64,000 nucleotides of DNA from Nitrosopumilaceae archaeon (lineage in GTDB: Archaea > Thermoproteota > Nitrososphaeria > Nitrososphaerales > Nitrosopumilaceae), in contig CBDATR010000010.1 of assembly GCA_965200155.1 (NCBI GenBank), positions 224,001 to 288,000 of the forward strand, given 5' to 3'. Positions 4,264 to 60,507 of the stretch are shown one piece after another. The position numbers and the translations under genes were made by a program. A model generated the notes under the pieces. That model was not told where the DNA came from. It saw only the letters and a program-made list of their open reading frames with translations, and ran no database searches. The first letter of the stretch is position 1, and the number at the start of each line of letters is the position of its first letter.

Positions 4264-5658
4264 ATGACAGTAGATATGGTGATAGTAGATTCTCATGTGG
4301 TATTCCCACAGGGCATAGTCGACAAGAATATAGTAATAGACGAGGGAAGAATAGTCGGTCTTACTACAGATGTTCCCGCATGTGACCAAAAGGTGCGGGG
4401 GGATGGTTTGCTGTCAGTACCCGGTCCCATTGATCCCCATGTTCATTATGGCGTATATTCTTCCATAGACAAGGCAGCGGAGACGGAATCACACGCAGCT
4501 GCCATTGGAGGCATTACTACCATGATGCGAATGATGAGGTTGTGGGAACCATTCTCATCAGGACTTCAGCGCCAACTTGATGCCTCGGCCAACACGCACT
4601 ACATAGACTATACTGCACATGCGTCAATCTTCACACACCGGCAAATATCCGAGATGGAATACTGTGCAGAGAGAGGGGTGGCATCCTTCAAGATATACAT
4701 GAATCTGGGCGGCGAAATAGGACATGTCTATATGGATATGCCACCATATTCCACCGAACTTTGTGAAGATAGTGTAGATGTGACCGATGATATAGTGGAG
4801 GAGACTATTAGGGTAGCCGCGAATATGGGTTGCCCCGTATTAATTCATGCAGAGGACTATGAATCATGCGAGTGTGGCATGAAGGAGGCCAAAAAAGAGA
4901 AGCAAGACGGACTGGCTGCGTGGTCCAAGAGCAGGGATCCCCATTATGAGGCAAAGGCAATAAAAAAGGCATGCCGGTTTGGACGCAAATATGGCTGCGT
5001 GCTATACTTTGTGCACATAGGATCCCAAGTTGCACTGGACCAGATCATGGCAGAGCGCCAATTGGGGACAAGCATACGCGTGGAGAGTTGCCCGCACTAC
5101 ATGGTACTCTCCCATGAAAACAGAAACGATCATCTGGCCAAGGTGATGCCACCCATACGTGCCAATTCCGATAATAATTCGGTCTGGAGTGCAGTGAGCC
5201 AGAATCGTATAGATACCATAGGTACAGACCATGTTGCCAACCGACTGGCACGAAAAGTGGGCTCTGATGTCTGGACATCGTTGGCCGGGTTTCCGGGGAT
5301 TGGGACGATGATCCCAATCCTGCTAAGCGAGGGCGTAAATCGTAACAGAATATCCCTAGAGCAGTTCATCAGGTTGACCAGTGTAAATACGGCAAAGATC
5401 TTCTCCATGTATCCAAAAAAAGGATCATTGGAGGCAGGTACGGACGCAGACATATCCATGCTAGACCTGAAACTGGAGCGAACAGTCACAGCAGATATGT
5501 TCGGAGGGTTCTCTGATTATTCTCCGTATGAGGAATTGTGTCTGCGCGGTTGGCCAGTAAGAACTATTGTGCGAGGGTCTGTGATTGCCGAAGATTTTTC
5601 CGTGGTGGGGAAACGGGGTCACGGAAAATTAGTGTCAAGACCGGATACATGTATATGA
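4264..5658 (+). CDS. Cyclic amidohydrolase (dihydroorotase/hydantoinase/allantoinase family)
   Basis: PGPIDPHVH, GGITT, HAED, ESCPHY, GTDH, KKGSLEAGTDADI motifs. Confidence 0.9.
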   Translation: MTVDMVIVDSHVVFPQGIVDKNIVIDEGRIVGLTTDVPACDQKVRGDGLLSVPGPIDPHVHYGVYSSIDKAAETESHAAAIGGITTMMRMMRLWEPFSSGLQRQLDASANTHYIDYTAHASIFTHRQISEMEYCAERGVASFKIYMNLGGEIGHVYMDMPPYSTELCEDSVDVTDDIVEETIRVAANMGCPVLIHAEDYESCECGMKEAKKEKQDGLAAWSKSRDPHYEAKAIKKACRFGRKYGCVLYFVHIGSQVALDQIMAERQLGTSIRVESCPHYMVLSHENRNDHLAKVMPPIRANSDNNSVWSAVSQNRIDTIGTDHVANRLARKVGSDVWTSLAGFPGIGTMIPILLSEGVNRNRISLEQFIRLTSVNTAKIFSMYPKKGSLEAGTDADISMLDLKLERTVTADMFGGFSDYSPYEELCLRGWPVRTIVRGSVIAEDFSVVGKRGHGKLVSRPDTCI

Positions 5659-5715
5659 AATACAAAGACGGTATTGACAGGGGAAACGGGGTCACGGAAA
5701 ATTAGTGTCAAGACC
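5607..5715. repeat. 36-bp direct repeat flanking a 37-bp unique insert (unit 1)
   Basis: GGGGAAACGGGGTCACGGAAAATTAGTGTCAAGACC at 5607-5642 and 5680-5715. Confidence 0.95.
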
Positions 5716-43942: not shown

Positions 43943-44034
43943 AAAAAAACATCCATCATACGAGCATTTTTTAGTGGAACATGCGTTGTGCATTATAGTT
44001 GCTTCATACAGGTTTTAACTTGCAACAGAGAACT

Positions 44035-44700
44035 ATGTTTTATGGCATAGTATGTACATTGGCGTGCACCGCTATTCTGGGTGAGGCTCATGCGCACACG
44101 CTGGACTCAATGGAGGGGTATCGTCTAGAGATAGGATGGATGAATAGTCCACCTTATTCCGGAGAGGTAAATGCCATAGTCTTACACATAAGCCCAATGA
44201 TGCCAGGGCTGGAACTGGAAGAGCAGCCATTTAGAGACGGCGTAGCAGGTCTACGAGACACCCTAAAGATGCAGCTGGTCTCTGCAACTTCCAGTCTCAC
44301 ATTGAGACTGGATCCTGACCCCGACATACCCGGCAAATATTATGTGTTTACCAAAATAAACAGGCCAGGCTTCTATCAAGCCAATCTTATAGGCACCATA
44401 AATGACGCCAACATTAACATCAGTATGCACCCGCCTCAAGTACGCAACGCCGAGCATATCACGTTTCCTCAGGAATATGGTATGATATACGATGTAGTTG
44501 CAACACAGGATATGCTACAGGAGAGATTGGACAACATTACACTTTCACACCAAGCGGAGTTTGAAGAGATTCGCCAAGAAATAGACATACAGGAACAACC
44601 TGTAGAACCAACGCTGCCATACGTAATTGCAGGTATTGGGGTAGTTATGGGAGCAGTGGCCATGGGCATGGCTGCCAAGACATACAGAAGGCTAGGATAG
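44035..44700 (+). CDS. Hypothetical surface protein (signal peptide, C-terminal TM)
   Basis: AHAH cleavage site, YRLEIGWMNSPP, C-terminal anchor. Confidence 0.75.
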   Translation: MFYGIVCTLACTAILGEAHAHTLDSMEGYRLEIGWMNSPPYSGEVNAIVLHISPMMPGLELEEQPFRDGVAGLRDTLKMQLVSATSSLTLRLDPDPDIPGKYYVFTKINRPGFYQANLIGTINDANINISMHPPQVRNAEHITFPQEYGMIYDVVATQDMLQERLDNITLSHQAEFEEIRQEIDIQEQPVEPTLPYVIAGIGVVMGAVAMGMAAKTYRRLG

Positions 44701-44789
44701 ATCTAGCATCATCATAAGAGTGAGCGCGCGACCAAATGTAATACCGGCAGTGCCATACAGAAGGCTAGGATAGATCTAGCACCATCATA
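44681..44789. repeat. 36-bp direct repeat (1 mismatch) flanking a 37-bp unique insert (unit 2)
   Basis: CATACAGAAGGCTAGGATAGATCTAGCAYCATCATA at 44681-44716 and 44754-44789. Confidence 0.95.
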
Positions 44790-45664
44790 TCTCTAGCCGC
44801 GCTGACCGATCCGTGTATGCGGCGGGCTTCCTCCAGTTGTACCGATTCATCTACATACCTGGCAGAGAAGTGTGTCAGTACTAGATTGACAACGCATGCA
44901 TTCTTGGCCAGAGTTGCAGCTTCATGTGCCGTAGTGTGTCGCGTTTCTTCAGCGCGCCTGGCCATATTTTGAGCAAAAGTTGAGTCAAATATCAAGTAGT
45001 TACAACATGTGAAAAAGTTCTCTAGCTGTTTGGTAGGTCTTGTGTCTCCCGAATATCCAATTTTAATACCCGGTCTGCGCTTTCCCAATACCTGAGCAGG
45101 AGTAATAGTGCGTCCGGATACATCCACACTTTTTCCTCGTTGGAGTTGTGACCATAACCGTCCTTTAGGCACACCCAAGGCTTTTGCCTGATCTGGATAG
45201 AACTGTCCGGGCTTCTCCTTCTCCTCAAGTACATACGAGTATGCAATTATGCCATGATCCGCACTACAGGCCCTTACCGTATACTGATCAGTCTGGCAAA
45301 CAACGCCGTCAGCAATATCACACACACTAAGATCAAAGGACGGCCTAAAGTCCAGCATCTCCATATTGAGCTCAATGAACCTCTTGGTTCCCCGGGGACC
45401 GTAAATTGAGAGCGGCCTCTGGCGCTTCTGCAACGACATTGTTTGAAGCAGGCCCAGAGCCCCGAGACAGTGATCACCATGCAAGTGTGTTATGTATATG
45501 CTCATCTTCTTGTTCCAACCCAGACCTGCCTTGCCATATGCCATCTGCGCTCCCTCACCGGCATCAAACATCAGTATCTCGCCTCCTCTATTCACGCATA
45601 TGCACGGATTATTCCTCTTTTTTGTAGGAAGTGATGCGGAAGTGCCCAAAAATATTATCTGCAT
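44765..45664 (-). CDS. rnz: Ribonuclease Z
   Basis: FLGTSAS, FDAGEGAQ, THLHGDH, YSGDT, LTHFSARY. Confidence 0.95.
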   Translation of the reverse strand: MQIIFLGTSASLPTKKRNNPCICVNRGGEILMFDAGEGAQMAYGKAGLGWNKKMSIYITHLHGDHCLGALGLLQTMSLQKRQRPLSIYGPRGTKRFIELNMEMLDFRPSFDLSVCDIADGVVCQTDQYTVRACSADHGIIAYSYVLEEKEKPGQFYPDQAKALGVPKGRLWSQLQRGKSVDVSGRTITPAQVLGKRRPGIKIGYSGDTRPTKQLENFFTCCNYLIFDSTFAQNMARRAEETRHTTAHEAATLAKNACVVNLVLTHFSARYVDESVQLEEARRIHGSVSAARDMMVLDLS

Positions 45665-45872: not shown

Positions 45873-46114
45873 GTAACCGTTTAGGTCAAGTTAAGTATGA
45901 GTTCACGTCTTCCGGAATCTTATGCACAAATCACATTAACTGTCGCGATCAGTTATGCGTAAATTTAGACACAGGTGAACTCATACCAAGTTAAAGATCA
46001 ACACCTAGACGGTAAATTAGTGGGCATGTGGGAGGCGCCATAATAGAAAAAGCAAGAACATACATGTTCGCCGTGTATTTTGGACAGTTGTCCGGAGGTG
46101 ACCTAAACGGTTAC
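45873..46114 (+). mobile_element. MITE-2 with nested MITE-1
   Basis: Perfect 16-bp TIR GTAACCGTTTAGGTCA/TGACCTAAACGGTTAC; flanks GCCCCAGAT/GCTCCAGAT. Confidence 0.92.
45895..45986 (-). mobile_element. MITE-1, TSD CAAGTTAA
   Basis: TIRs and 8-bp duplication. Confidence 0.97.
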
Positions 46115-46980: not shown

Positions 46981-47050
46981 TTCCCATACTTCCTGTTCAC
47001 TTTATTAAACTTCTATAACGGCTACTACAAGTCTCTGCATATACATTTGT

Positions 47051-48585
47051 TATAGCGGTCACCATAAGTCTTTGAGAACATGGCACCTCGTTCCTGGATG
47101 GTACATGGCTTTGGCTTGTCACCATTATTCCCGCCCTGACGCCTCCGGTTGGGCGGGTAGCGGTTCCCTGCCCCCCGGACGACACGCTCTGCCGCCCCAT
47201 ACAGAGAAACCGGTTACTAAACGCCGCGTTGATATCGGCGTGAAATTCCTGGTTACATATTGAATGTGTCCCTAGTTGATCGTGATTTGTCGTCAACGTG
47301 TCCACACACGTCATAGGTCTGGCTCGTTGGGCGGGTAAACCGCTCCCTCGTGTATTTCGCTGGCACAGCCACCAATTCAATCCCCAGCGCCTCGCACTTT
47401 TGCTCCACTCTCCGGCGGAACACGCCTACCCGGTTCTCGCGCATGGAGCGGTTCATCATTCTTTTGTGGTTCCCACCATGACTGGTCATTGATTTCGGTG
47501 ATAAATCCTCTAGTACCACCTTGTCCACACCTGATGTCACAGCATTTATCCATGCGAATATTATCCAAATATTGCCTGACCGCTAGTACTACCTTGTCCA
47601 CACCTGATGTCACAGCATTGACTATTCTATTCATGGTGTCATTCGTGATATTATTCGCCTGCTGCCTCAACTGGTTGATTTTCTTTTCGATCTTTCGCTT
47701 TCTGCGCTTACCCTTTCTGGATTTAATACTCTGTAGGTAACGGATCTCCCGCAATATGGAACGATGCCTCATGTCGTGAATCATTGTTCCACCATTCGTG
47801 TCGGCTGTTACAACCAGGTGTTTCCTGCCGACATCCACGCCACGAATGACACCGGTTGTCACATGCCTTTCGGGAACGATTCCAACATTGATATGAATCT
47901 CGAATTTGCGTTCTCCTGGAAGTCCTCTTGTCTGTTCTCTCGACTAGTTTGAATGAGCGCATGTTCCAGGAATGAACGATTGGCTTTGTCGTTCTCGCGA
48001 CACCAAAACCCGACAAGTATAGTTTGCGAGAACCGCGCCTTATCGGCGGACTCACACATGAAAGTATGATTCTTTTATTGTCACGCCGGTGTGGTATGTA
48101 ATCAGAATGATCCTCGTACGCGCGCCTACACGCGATAGGCGCCTGTAATATGGCGCCCCGGCCATAGTTAACTGGTAACTTGTGCACCAATTCAATATCA
48201 CGACGCCACTTTGTTAATTCCAAGAATAGACCATTTGTATAACCGTTCTAGAACGTGGTAGCTGATTCATGTAGAGTGGATCGCCCTTCTTAAGATTGTA
48301 TGGTGACTTGGCGGACTCGTTCCTATTCTTGACCTTGGCCGGATCATGCTTCAATTCTAGAGTGGTTCCGGGCATATCATAACCGCCAAGACTGATCTCG
48401 TATACGGCTCTCTATTATAGACACAATCGGATGTATGACCAAATATCTTGGTACGCCGGGAGGATTCCCTATCCGTTTTCAACGGTATTCCGGGTTATGT
48501 CATCCATTATCTGGTGATTCTACTCTAGTAGTGGTTCTATAAAGTACGGTTCTATACCCGGCAGAGACTTATGATGGGCGTTATA
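47051..48585 (-). mobile_element. tnpB: TIR-bounded element carrying a frameshifted tnpB (copy 1)
   Basis: RuvC motifs GVDVG, VVLEDL, SQT..VCGH, HADINAA in shifted frames; TIRs TATAGCGGTCACCATAAGTCTTTG / CAGAGACTTATGATGGGCGTTATA. Confidence 0.88.
47511..47619. repeat. 36-bp direct repeat (1 mismatch) flanking a 37-bp unique insert (unit 3)
   Basis: TAGTACYACCTTGTCCACACCTGATGTCACAGCATT at 47511-47546 and 47584-47619 (one-base boundary ambiguity). Confidence 0.95.
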
Positions 48586-59056: not shown

Positions 59057-60507
59057 TATAGCGGTCACCGTAAGTCTTTGAGAACATGGCACCTCATTCC
59101 TGGACAGTGCATGGGTTTGGCTTGTCACCATTATTCTCGCCCTGACGCCTCCGGTTGGGCGGGGAACGGTTCCCCGCCCCCCGGACGACACGCTCTGCCG
59201 CCCCATACAGGGAAACCGGTTACTAAACGCCGCGTTGATATCGGCGTGAAATTCCTGGTTACATATTGAGTGTCCCTAGTTGATCGTGATTTGTCGTCAA
59301 CGTGTCCACACACGTGATAGGTCTGGCTCGTTGGGCGGGTAAACCGCTCCCTCGTGTATTTCGCTGGCACAGCCACCAATTCAATCCCCAGTGCCTCGCA
59401 CTTTTGCTCCACTCTCCGGCGGAACTCACCTACCCAGTTCTCGCGCATAGAGCGGTTCATTGTTCTTTTGTGGTTCCCACCATGACTGGTCATTGATTTC
59501 GGTGATAAATCCTCTAGTACCACCTTGTCCACACTTTTGGTGATCGCGTGAACGATTCTATTCATGGAGTCGTTTCGCTATGTTGTTGGCTTTCTGTCGT
59601 AACTGAATGATTGTATGAGTTCACGTCTTCCGGAGTCTTACGCACAAATCACATTAACTGTCGCGATCAGTTATGCGTAAATTTAGACACAAGTGAACTC
59701 ATACTAATCGTGTTCCCGTTCGTGTCCGCCAAATGTTTACCGCCAACGTCCACGCAGCGAACAACGCCGGTTGACACGTGCCTTTCAGACACCATTCCAA
59801 CATTGATGTGAATCTCGAATTGACGCTCCCTGCTCTTGTTAACTCGTTCCACTAGAATGAGCGCATCTCCCCGGGAACGATCGATTGGTTGTTCTCACCA
59901 CGCCAAAACCGCACAGGCCCAACTCGAACTCACCACGACGGATTGGTGACCCCACACATGATAGTATGATTCTGTCATTGTCACGCCGGTGTGGCATGTC
60001 ATTGGAATAATCCCGTATGCGCGCCTGCACGCGACAGACGCCTGTAGTATGGCACTCCGGCCATAGTTAGCTGGTAACTCGCGCATCCACTCCAGATCAG
60101 GGCGCCACTTTGTCTATTTCAGGAACAACCCATTCTTGTTGGACGGGTAAACCGTCCCCCGATAACCGTTCTAGAACGTGGTAGCTGATTCAAGTATAAT
60201 GAATCACCCTTCTTTAGGCCGTATGGTGACTTGGCGTACTCGTTCTTATTCTTGATCTTGGCCGGATCATGCTTCAATTCAAGAGTGGTTCCGGGTATGT
60301 AGTAACCGCCAAGACTGATCTCGGATACGGCTCTATTATAGACATAATCGGATGTGTGACCAAATATCTTGGCGCGCCGGAAGAATTCCCTATCCGTTTT
60401 CAACTGCATTCCGGGTTATGTCATCCATCATCTGGTGATTCTACTCTGGTAGTGTTTCTATAAAAGTACGGTCCTATACCCGGCAAAGACTTATGGTGGG
60501 CGCTATA
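59057..60507 (-). mobile_element. tnpB: TIR-bounded element carrying a decayed tnpB (copy 2)
   Basis: Homologous to 47051-48585; TIRs TATAGCGGTCACCGTAAGTCTTTG / CAAAGACTTATGGTGGGCGCTATA (21/24). Confidence 0.88.
59613..59704 (-). mobile_element. MITE-1, no TSD, replacing about 100 bp of tnpB
   Basis: TIRs; the segment present at ~47681-47777 is missing here. Confidence 0.93.

Follow-up and report, generated by a model that had tools for sequence, protein, structure and literature searches.

How does a 37-nt sequence come to lie between two nearly identical copies of a 36-nt piece of coding sequence, inside a gene whose relatives carry that piece once? The question is posed by a locus, termed here Unit 3, in a 64,000-nt stretch of DNA from a sponge-associated Nitrosopumilaceae archaeon (assembly GCA_965200155.1, contig CBDATR010000010.1, positions 224,001 to 288,000 of the forward strand). 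This stretch, C10:224001-288000 of the assembly designated G000, is the window, and coordinates without a contig label refer to it. The interrupted gene is a decayed copy of tnpB. Unit 3 is very probably an off-target, full-site integration of a spacer by the host's own type I-G Cas4/Cas1-Cas2, the adaptation machinery of its CRISPR system, which became fixed in that copy. This reading draws on the geometry of the unit, its derived state, its presence in independent assemblies, the adaptation genes resident in the same genome, and a genome-wide population of similar units whose inserts can often be traced and whose targets share a bias with the ends of the CRISPR repeat. Feature coordinates are collected in Table 1.

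A duplicated target inside a tnpB pseudogene

The original prediction described a 36-bp stretch encoding NAVTSGVDKVVL as duplicated around TATCCATGCGAATATTATCCAAATATTGCCTGACCGC, with a frameshift in tnpB as the outcome. Both parts were borne out: the two copies agree at 35 of 36 positions, the insert reads as quoted, and the gain of 73 nt (3x24+1) shifts the frame. The direct repeat as a whole spans 47507-47546 and 47580-47619, with a start-to-start distance of 73, and encloses the 36-nt cores listed in the table. The sole mismatch between the cores is a C in one copy and a T in the other (TAGTACC/TAGTACT), and one extra matching base to the left of the core (C at 47510 and 47583) allows the unit to be split as either 36+37 or 37+36. 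Read on the minus strand, the repeat codes for NAVTSGVDKVVL and then for the ED of a TnpB-like protein; the glutamate of the VVLED motif in this copy is presumably that of RuvC-II. Unit 3 is not itself a functional CRISPR array, having two repeats only and a repeat that is tnpB coding sequence. Nor does it have the makings of a transposable element, whether an insertion sequence or a miniature inverted-repeat transposable element (MITE): the insert is unique, the duplication is 36 nt long, and no terminal inverted repeat was seen in the 37-mer on direct reading.

The tnpB copy that received Unit 3 survives as a series of overlapping open reading frame (ORF) fragments, which score just below the Pfam cut-offs for OrfB_IS605 (24.9 bits versus 30.5) and Cas12f1-like_TNB (25.2 versus 26.3), while a fragment of a paralog on contig C9 passes with PF07282 at 53.1 bits. 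Its LED and CGH motifs lie in frame 1 and its NAA motif in frame 2, so this copy is a pseudogene. Since it contains other frame breaks besides the insertion, Unit 3 is not necessarily what inactivated it. The same motifs are split over more than one frame in 16 of the 18 paralogous 3' modules found genome-wide, and the tnpB family as a whole is decaying. The family is also a mosaic. In the window segment 46991-47532 and some 18 paralogs, the 3' ~480 nt, from VVLED to past the end of the gene, are 80-96% identical, while the remainder of the gene is only 70-80% identical between copies, and the boundary falls inside the Unit 3 target. Constraint on the guide-RNA region, or its gene conversion, may underlie this pattern.

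The gain had been proposed to be a derived insertion with target duplication on the strength of the second tnpB copy in the window, taken as an empty site at ~59515-59550. That copy does carry the 36-mer once and has no insert, but to the right of the site its sequence is highly divergent, and by itself it makes a weak empty site. The wider family settles the matter. A BLAST search of the Unit 3 flanks against the genome retrieved about twenty paralogs in which the overlap between the two flanks is exactly one 36-mer, giving a segment length of 197 (116+117-36). When Unit 3 was aligned with 13 paralogs using MAFFT, the second in-window copy among them, all 13 showed one copy of the target and a gap of 73 columns. 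Every aligned paralog thus lacks the insertion, which is derived.

The insertion is also present in independent assemblies, and the concern that reads might not support it did not hold. Logan contigs of runs from three studies, some of the runs being labelled sponge metagenome and others by coded organisms, bridge Unit 3 with no differences: record 8 of X1 (452 nt), record 15 of X2 (631 nt) and record 32 of X8 (1217 nt). One of the three is possibly the window's own sample, which leaves at least two independent observations, and the evidence consists of contigs rather than raw reads, so that rare insert-less variants would escape it. No joint skipping the 73 nt was present among the 15 joints listed, of 21 in all. 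In the contigs of an RNA run (X6), Unit 2, a second unit of the window described below, is covered and depth is 0 over 47542-47658; these contigs are silent on transcription either way.

The resident type I-G CRISPR system

The genome contains a single CRISPR array (C9:71010-92091) of 289 repeats, in which the conserved block is exactly 36 nt long, with random columns on both sides (canonical repeat ATTTCC...ATTGAAGG). Among its 288 intervals, the period is 73 in 101, 72 in 85, 74 in 63, 71 in 16 and 75 in 15; periods of 71-75 thus account for 280 of the 288, with a mode of 73. On one side of the array, a 549-aa open frame matches the Cas4g/Cas1g fusion profile over its full length (NF049935, 710.7 bits versus a 560-bit cut-off) and is accompanied by Cas2 (TIGR01573, 35.4 bits versus a cut-off of 24.5). 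On the other side lie Csb1/Cas7g, Csb2, Cas3g and a Cas3-extension protein. Judged from these profile matches, the array and its cas genes form a type I-G system, whose adaptation module is apparently intact. A second Cas1 homologue was not found in the genome, the assembly being 87.6% complete. Outside the C9 array, the core of the canonical repeat occurs as one solitary copy, on the minus strand of C43, with at most 5 mismatches.

The dimensions of Unit 3 are those of this array. Its duplication, 36 nt or 37 nt with the ambiguous base, is as long as the resident CRISPR repeat (36), and its period of 73 falls inside the range of array periods and coincides with their mode. Because the 36/37 geometry of Unit 3 is that of the host array, it is best read as a misplaced spacer and not as a mobile element.

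Similar units in the window and across the genome

Two further units of this kind occur in the window (Units 1 and 2). All three have a start-to-start distance of 73, each with a different local 36-mer and a different 37-mer, and none of their inserts has a source in the assembly. Unit 1 falls at the 3' terminus of the ORF 4264-5658, whose stop codon is now within the insert. Unit 2 is placed where the 3' ends of two genes meet, an ORF on the plus strand (43999-44700) and a 299-aa ORF on the minus strand (44765-45664), each of which keeps its own copy of the target; X1, X2 and X6 contigs bridge it with no differences. A fourth unit begins 31 nt past the end of the window (C10:288031-288140, period 74), and its 38-nt insert is identical to C10:156134-156171, inside a repeated element of which dozens of partial copies exist.

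On contigs of at least 20 kb, the array excluded, a scan for direct repeats of 30-46 nt gave 71 hits at spacings of 71-75, versus 21 at all remaining spacings between 55 and 95, an excess beyond chance. This histogram is unselected and shows the 71-75 peak independently of the filter that we used to define units (periods 70-76, at least 33 of 36 matches), under which the period range is selected and is not a result. Six small low-G+C contigs rich in tandem repeats (C2, C8, C26, C32, C38 and C40) were dropped, as were a coding tandem repeat at C10:3477xx and three doubtful rows (C25:10561, C29:837 and C33:4575). The 65 isolated units that were retained reduce to 61 unique events once copies carried by repeated elements are removed, with a density of about 3 per 100 kb on each of the large contigs. 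All 61 have periods of 71-75, inside the selection range. Their target copies are identical in 46 events and differ by one position in 11 (Unit 3 included), by two in 3 and by three in 1, and the 61 inserts are all different from one another.

The units are unevenly placed. Repeated flanks were found for 38 of 64 units on large contigs, against a repeat content of 31.7% for those contigs (p = 6e-6), and five of the 64 lie inside the tnpB family of Unit 3, which represents 1.7% of the sequence (p = 0.005). Enrichment in repeats and at gene ends fits a filter by selection as well as a preference for such targets, and the two are not separable. Periods divisible by 3 occur in 31 of 61 stray units versus 100 of 288 array intervals (Fisher p = 0.02, copies removed), but such units are not clearly more frequent inside long ORFs (8 of 35 versus 4 of 30 for the others), and we do not build on an in-frame bias.

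Sources of the inserts

An independent source elsewhere in the assembly was identified for 29 of the 61 inserts, and in 20 of these the match is perfect (100% identity) over 33-42 nt. By comparison, only one of the 288 array spacers has a match outside the array (Fisher p = 3e-24). That single spacer, number 58 (C9:75210-75246), matches no chromosomal gene; its partner is the insert of a stray unit (C25:4760-4870), with which it overlaps over 27 nt at an offset of 10 nt. Both apparently derive from one piece of DNA that the assembly lacks. One of the traced sources lies in the window itself and is listed in the table.

A TTN trinucleotide, the protospacer adjacent motif (PAM) reported for type I-U/I-G, is present at one flank of the source in 10 of the 29 sourced events, versus 12.5% expected (p = 0.002). 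When units were oriented by their similarity to the canonical repeat in order to find the PAM side, TTN appeared on either side.

For the insert of Unit 3, the best other match in the assembly is 17 nt long (E = 0.71). Exact-match scans with its 30-nt core returned nothing from viral_contigs or from metagenome_contigs, and a search of the 37-mer against phages and plasmids gave chance matches alone (E >= 5).

Choice of target

The junctions were profiled with one representative per target family, that is, 98 junctions from 49 families. The third base inside the duplication (position +2) is a T in 47 of the 98, position +10 is a G or C in 72, and position +11 is a C in 43. A T at +2 and G/C at +10/+11 are common to both ends of the canonical repeat, which read ATTTCCGCAGCC... 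and, as the reverse complement, CCTTCAATGAGG... In addition, the targets resemble the canonical repeat more closely than do random genomic 36-mers handled alike, with a mean best identity of 12.88 versus 11.44 +/- 0.28 (z = 5.1), a value reached by none of 2000 random sets. The bias is a property of the population: the target of Unit 3 is at the random level, so the resemblance supports the set and not this single case.

Sites with several inserts

Some sites have received more than one insert. At the junction between cas4/1 and cas2, a segment of 36-40 nt holding the cas4/1 stop and the cas2 start is triplicated around two different inserts (C9:70400-70590; L001:18400-18590), both with sources on other contigs. 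The ends of cas4/1 and cas2 are intact and now stand 148 nt further apart, at a site ~420 nt upstream of the array. A second such site is a hot spot, one 36-mer of a multi-copy ORF (...LQDTLASTKKELAHYK...), at which nine units, carrying at least six distinct inserts, were found across the copies. Where a copy holds 3-4 repeats, the newer inserts are always found to one and the same side of an older, shared insert. Read in that orientation, the source of one hot-spot insert is flanked 5' by TTG, and in the copy at C24:460667 a 503-codon frame continues through the 72-nt gain. A further small stray array is located at C24:237593-237780.

Sister species

As a control, we scanned 396 kb around the type I-G locus, and not the whole genome, in each of two sister species, G005 and G006. 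The former has a 36-nt repeat and about 130 repeats in its array, and no isolated unit was found at spacings of 71-75 in its 396 kb, versus 11.2 expected at the density of G000 (P = 1.4e-5). The absence of units in G005 shows that the scan does not invent them. In G006, four isolated units were detected, all with the modal period of the G006 array, 72; one of them adjoins the cas4/cas1 of that species. Among further sister species, G001 and G008 also have the system, and the query used recovered no Cas4/Cas1 from G002, G003 or G007. The phenomenon is therefore not confined to G000, and it is much denser there. The higher density could possibly stem from weak selection in a repeat-laden symbiont genome, from a looser integrase, or from altered expression of cas1-cas2 following the two insertions between these genes.

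Proposed mechanism and alternative explanations

A misplaced spacer would arise as follows. A spacer-sized fragment of ~37 nt would be joined to the chromosome on both strands, at two positions separated by 36-37 bp, the distance that the complex normally measures across the CRISPR repeat. Gap filling would then duplicate the 36-nt target on either side of the fragment. With the target inside an already decaying tnpB, the 73-bp gain would be harmless and could become fixed. The choice of Cas4/Cas1-Cas2 as the enzyme, the order of the two strand-joining steps and the neutrality of the insertion are inferred.

Several observations weigh against this account or limit it. Same-genus genomes match only at a neighbouring pstS-like gene, with ~71-75% DNA identity, and offered no orthologous tnpB site, and hence no orthologous empty site. 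The insert of Unit 3 is without a source in the assembly and in the viral, metagenome, phage and plasmid collections, so that neither PAM nor orientation can be read from it, and its target is identical to the canonical repeat at 11 of 36 positions, where the random mean is 11.4. The T-G-C pattern is present at one of its two junctions only, the 47619 side reading A-A-T-G-C. Across the population, TTN is missing from both flanks in 19 of the 29 sourced events, and in events whose boundaries are resolved by the source the duplication measures 36-38 nt and not strictly 36 (of 20 cases, 14 are compatible with 36 and 13 with 37). The integration ruler, as this spread indicates, is slightly loose off-target. 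Finally, the completeness of 87.6% restricts the counts of inserts with "no source" and of "only one Cas1" to the assembled part of the genome.

Among the alternatives, a tiny mobile element, or another integrase or recombinase unrelated to CRISPR, that inserts cassettes of ~37 bp with a 36-bp target-site duplication is highly improbable. The architecture is formally that of an insertion with target duplication, and the genome is rich in mobile DNA (31.7% repeated, with 575 copies of a 92-nt MITE). Such an element would, however, have to account for 61 unique inserts that all differ, that of Unit 3 being single-copy, and for inserts that copy ordinary chromosomal sequence. The genuine MITE found here carries terminal inverted repeats of 12 nt, duplicates ~8 bp of its target and bears little resemblance to these units. 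The match to the repeat length and to the modal period of the array would be a coincidence, and one met again in G006, where the units match the modal period of the G006 array itself, 72.

We regard as just as improbable a capture of filler DNA during double-strand-break repair or template switching, with the local duplication made by repair synthesis. About half of the inserts were copied from the same chromosome, as filler can be, and the insert of Unit 3 has a weak inverted match (13 of 15) with 47647-47661, but that match sits in an A/T-rich near-palindrome, and nothing longer was found. Repair predicts no fixed length of insert or duplication, against observed periods of 71-75 in 61 events and duplications of 36-38 nt, and it predicts neither the enrichment in TTN nor targets that look like the CRISPR repeat ends.

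A tandem duplication of 73 bp or replication slippage, followed by divergence of the middle, would produce a pair of nearly identical 36-nt copies arranged in tandem at a fixed period, but it is scarcely credible when the copies differ at 1 of 36 positions while the 37 nt between them are unlike the 37 nt after the second copy and unlike any tnpB paralog, and when the same period recurs with unrelated sequences at 60 other loci; the insert being unrelated to the neighbouring tnpB or to the rest of the assembly, this reading, which the original prediction had itself raised as a danger, is removed. An assembly or chimera artefact is no more credible, for although the genome is assembled from a metagenome in 51 contigs at 87.6% completeness and a multi-copy tnpB invites misassembly, contigs from three studies carry Unit 3 letter for letter.

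Comparison with known integration systems

The off-target integration of spacers proposed here has precedents. Integration by Cas1-Cas2 away from the array, giving rise to neo-CRISPR loci (Nivala, Shipman and Church 2018, Nat Microbiol 3:310), is described in papers that cite this work (PMC7054753, bioRxiv 10.1101/148544, PMC11788318, PMC9456107, PMC6546382). As reported in PMC7054753, the system is the type I-E of Escherichia coli with overproduced Cas1-Cas2 and supplied oligonucleotides, and the events are rare reads. Evidence for natural off-target events, from two other species, is called "circumstantial" in bioRxiv 10.1101/148544. As far as these accounts go, the units reported here share with neo-CRISPR loci a spacer-sized insert, a repeat-length duplication of non-CRISPR sequence and a chromosomal location away from the array, and some sites likewise take up more spacers to form small arrays (here the hot-spot ORF, C9:70400-70590 and C24:237593-237780). 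They differ in involving an archaeal type I-G Cas4/Cas1 fusion, a wild population and 61 fixed events, half of them with a chromosomal source.

The Cas1-Cas2 of Pyrococcus furiosus integrates off-target in vitro on plasmid substrates, according to PMC6698737. The two attack points are set in both cases by a ruler of about repeat length, to which the present units add a T at +2 and G/C at +10/+11 in common with the repeat ends. Unlike those in vitro products, our units are fixed chromosomal insertions that may have been filtered by selection and are enriched in repeated DNA and at gene ends. For the type I-U/I-G Cas4/Cas1-Cas2 of Geobacter sulfurreducens, Almendros et al. 2019 (PMC6547450) reported spacers that are predominantly 36 bp long, with TTN as the PAM for roughly half of the unique ones newly acquired. 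The Cas4-Cas1 fusion, spacers of ~36 bp and TTN (here in 10 of the 29 sourced events) are shared, whereas integration in G. sulfurreducens takes place at the leader-repeat junction of the array and here at arbitrary chromosomal sites, with repeats that are not expected to be recognised by the effector complex.

A transposon or MITE insertion also leaves a direct target duplication around the insert. In contrast to these, Unit 3 has no terminal inverted repeats, its insert is single-copy, and its duplication is 36 nt instead of ~8 bp.

Among the titles and abstracts listed by the literature searches, we found no natural genome-wide set of off-target integrations; supplements and most subscription papers were outside the search, and this is not proof of absence. 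The term "ectopic spacer", as used in print, denotes integration within an array. The mechanism is thus known in E. coli with overproduced Cas1-Cas2 and in P. furiosus in vitro, and what appears to be new is a natural set of this size.

Other features of the window and the assembly

The MITE of this genome is 92 nt long, is bounded by 12-nt terminal inverted repeats (GTATGAGTTCAC...GTGAACTCATAC) and makes a target duplication of ~8 bp. The 575 genomic copies are those of at least 85 nt; 15 are in the window (including 45895-45988 and 59613-59704), and one lies inside the second tnpB copy. Its summed contig depth in the metagenome runs is very high.

Many small contigs of the assembly have a G+C content of 35-42%, versus ~47% for the large ones (C2-C8, C11, C14-C18, C26-C29, C32, C33, C38-C40, C44, C45, C47 and C49). 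Several of them are full of tandem repeats, and they may come from another organism.

Table 1. Location of Unit 3, of the tnpB copy that contains it, and of related units and sources. Unlabelled coordinates are window positions; a dot marks features without an assigned strand.
Feature	Location	Strand	Remarks
Unit 3, first copy of duplicated 36-nt target	47511-47546	.	35/36 versus 47584-47619; 37 nt if start is 47510
Unit 3, insert	47547-47583	.	37 nt, spacer-sized, single-copy in genome; sequence TATCCATGCGAATATTATCCAAATATTGCCTGACCGC
Unit 3, second target copy	47584-47619	.	35/36 versus 47511-47546
Decayed tnpB copy that received Unit 3	46997-48223	-	at least 4 overlapping ORF fragments in different frames
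ORF fragments of decayed tnpB copy	47723-48223, 47377-47862, 47253-47540, 46997-47380	-	all on the minus strand
Paralogous site in second in-window tnpB copy	59515-59550	.	single copy, no insert (alignment row C10_283477)
Unit 1	5607-5715	.	copies 5607-5642 / 5680-5715, 36/36; 37-nt insert 5643-5679
Unit 2	44681-44789	.	copies 44681-44716 / 44754-44789, 35/36; 37-nt insert 44717-44753
Source (protospacer) of stray insert at C24:237593	1673-1711 (C10:225711-225673)	-	39/39 nt
Hot-spot copies	C24:500842-501101, C24:460667, C10:83012, C10:6462, C10:210130, C24:97241, C13:25654, C51:127		2-4 repeats
G006 isolated units	C1:867866, 983325, 1037481, 1129534		one adjoining G006 cas4/cas1

Implications

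Unit 3 alone is ordinary and modest, one probably neutral stray spacer in a dead tnpB; it is the genome-wide set that deserves attention. We lean, by a small measure, towards regarding this genome as a natural and largely unselected logbook of CRISPR adaptation, in which Cas4/Cas1-Cas2 would be a real endogenous insertion mutagen. Units of two repeats escape CRISPR finders because they have only two repeats, and they can be misread as transposon scars, frameshifts or assembly errors. They also alter genes, including by in-frame insertions of 24 codons.

With 61 events fixed in a wild archaeon, the fidelity of spacer integration in nature becomes testable. The contrast between 29 of 61 stray inserts and 1 of 288 array spacers with chromosomal matches suggests that the cleanliness of the array is a result of selection. 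If this is true, the discrimination between self and non-self would be imposed in the wild after integration, by autoimmunity, and not by the integrase. The origin of arrays de novo becomes testable as well, since several stray sites stand at 3-4 repeats with polar addition. If the present reading holds, the sites that have gained further spacers on the same side would be CRISPR arrays caught at birth.

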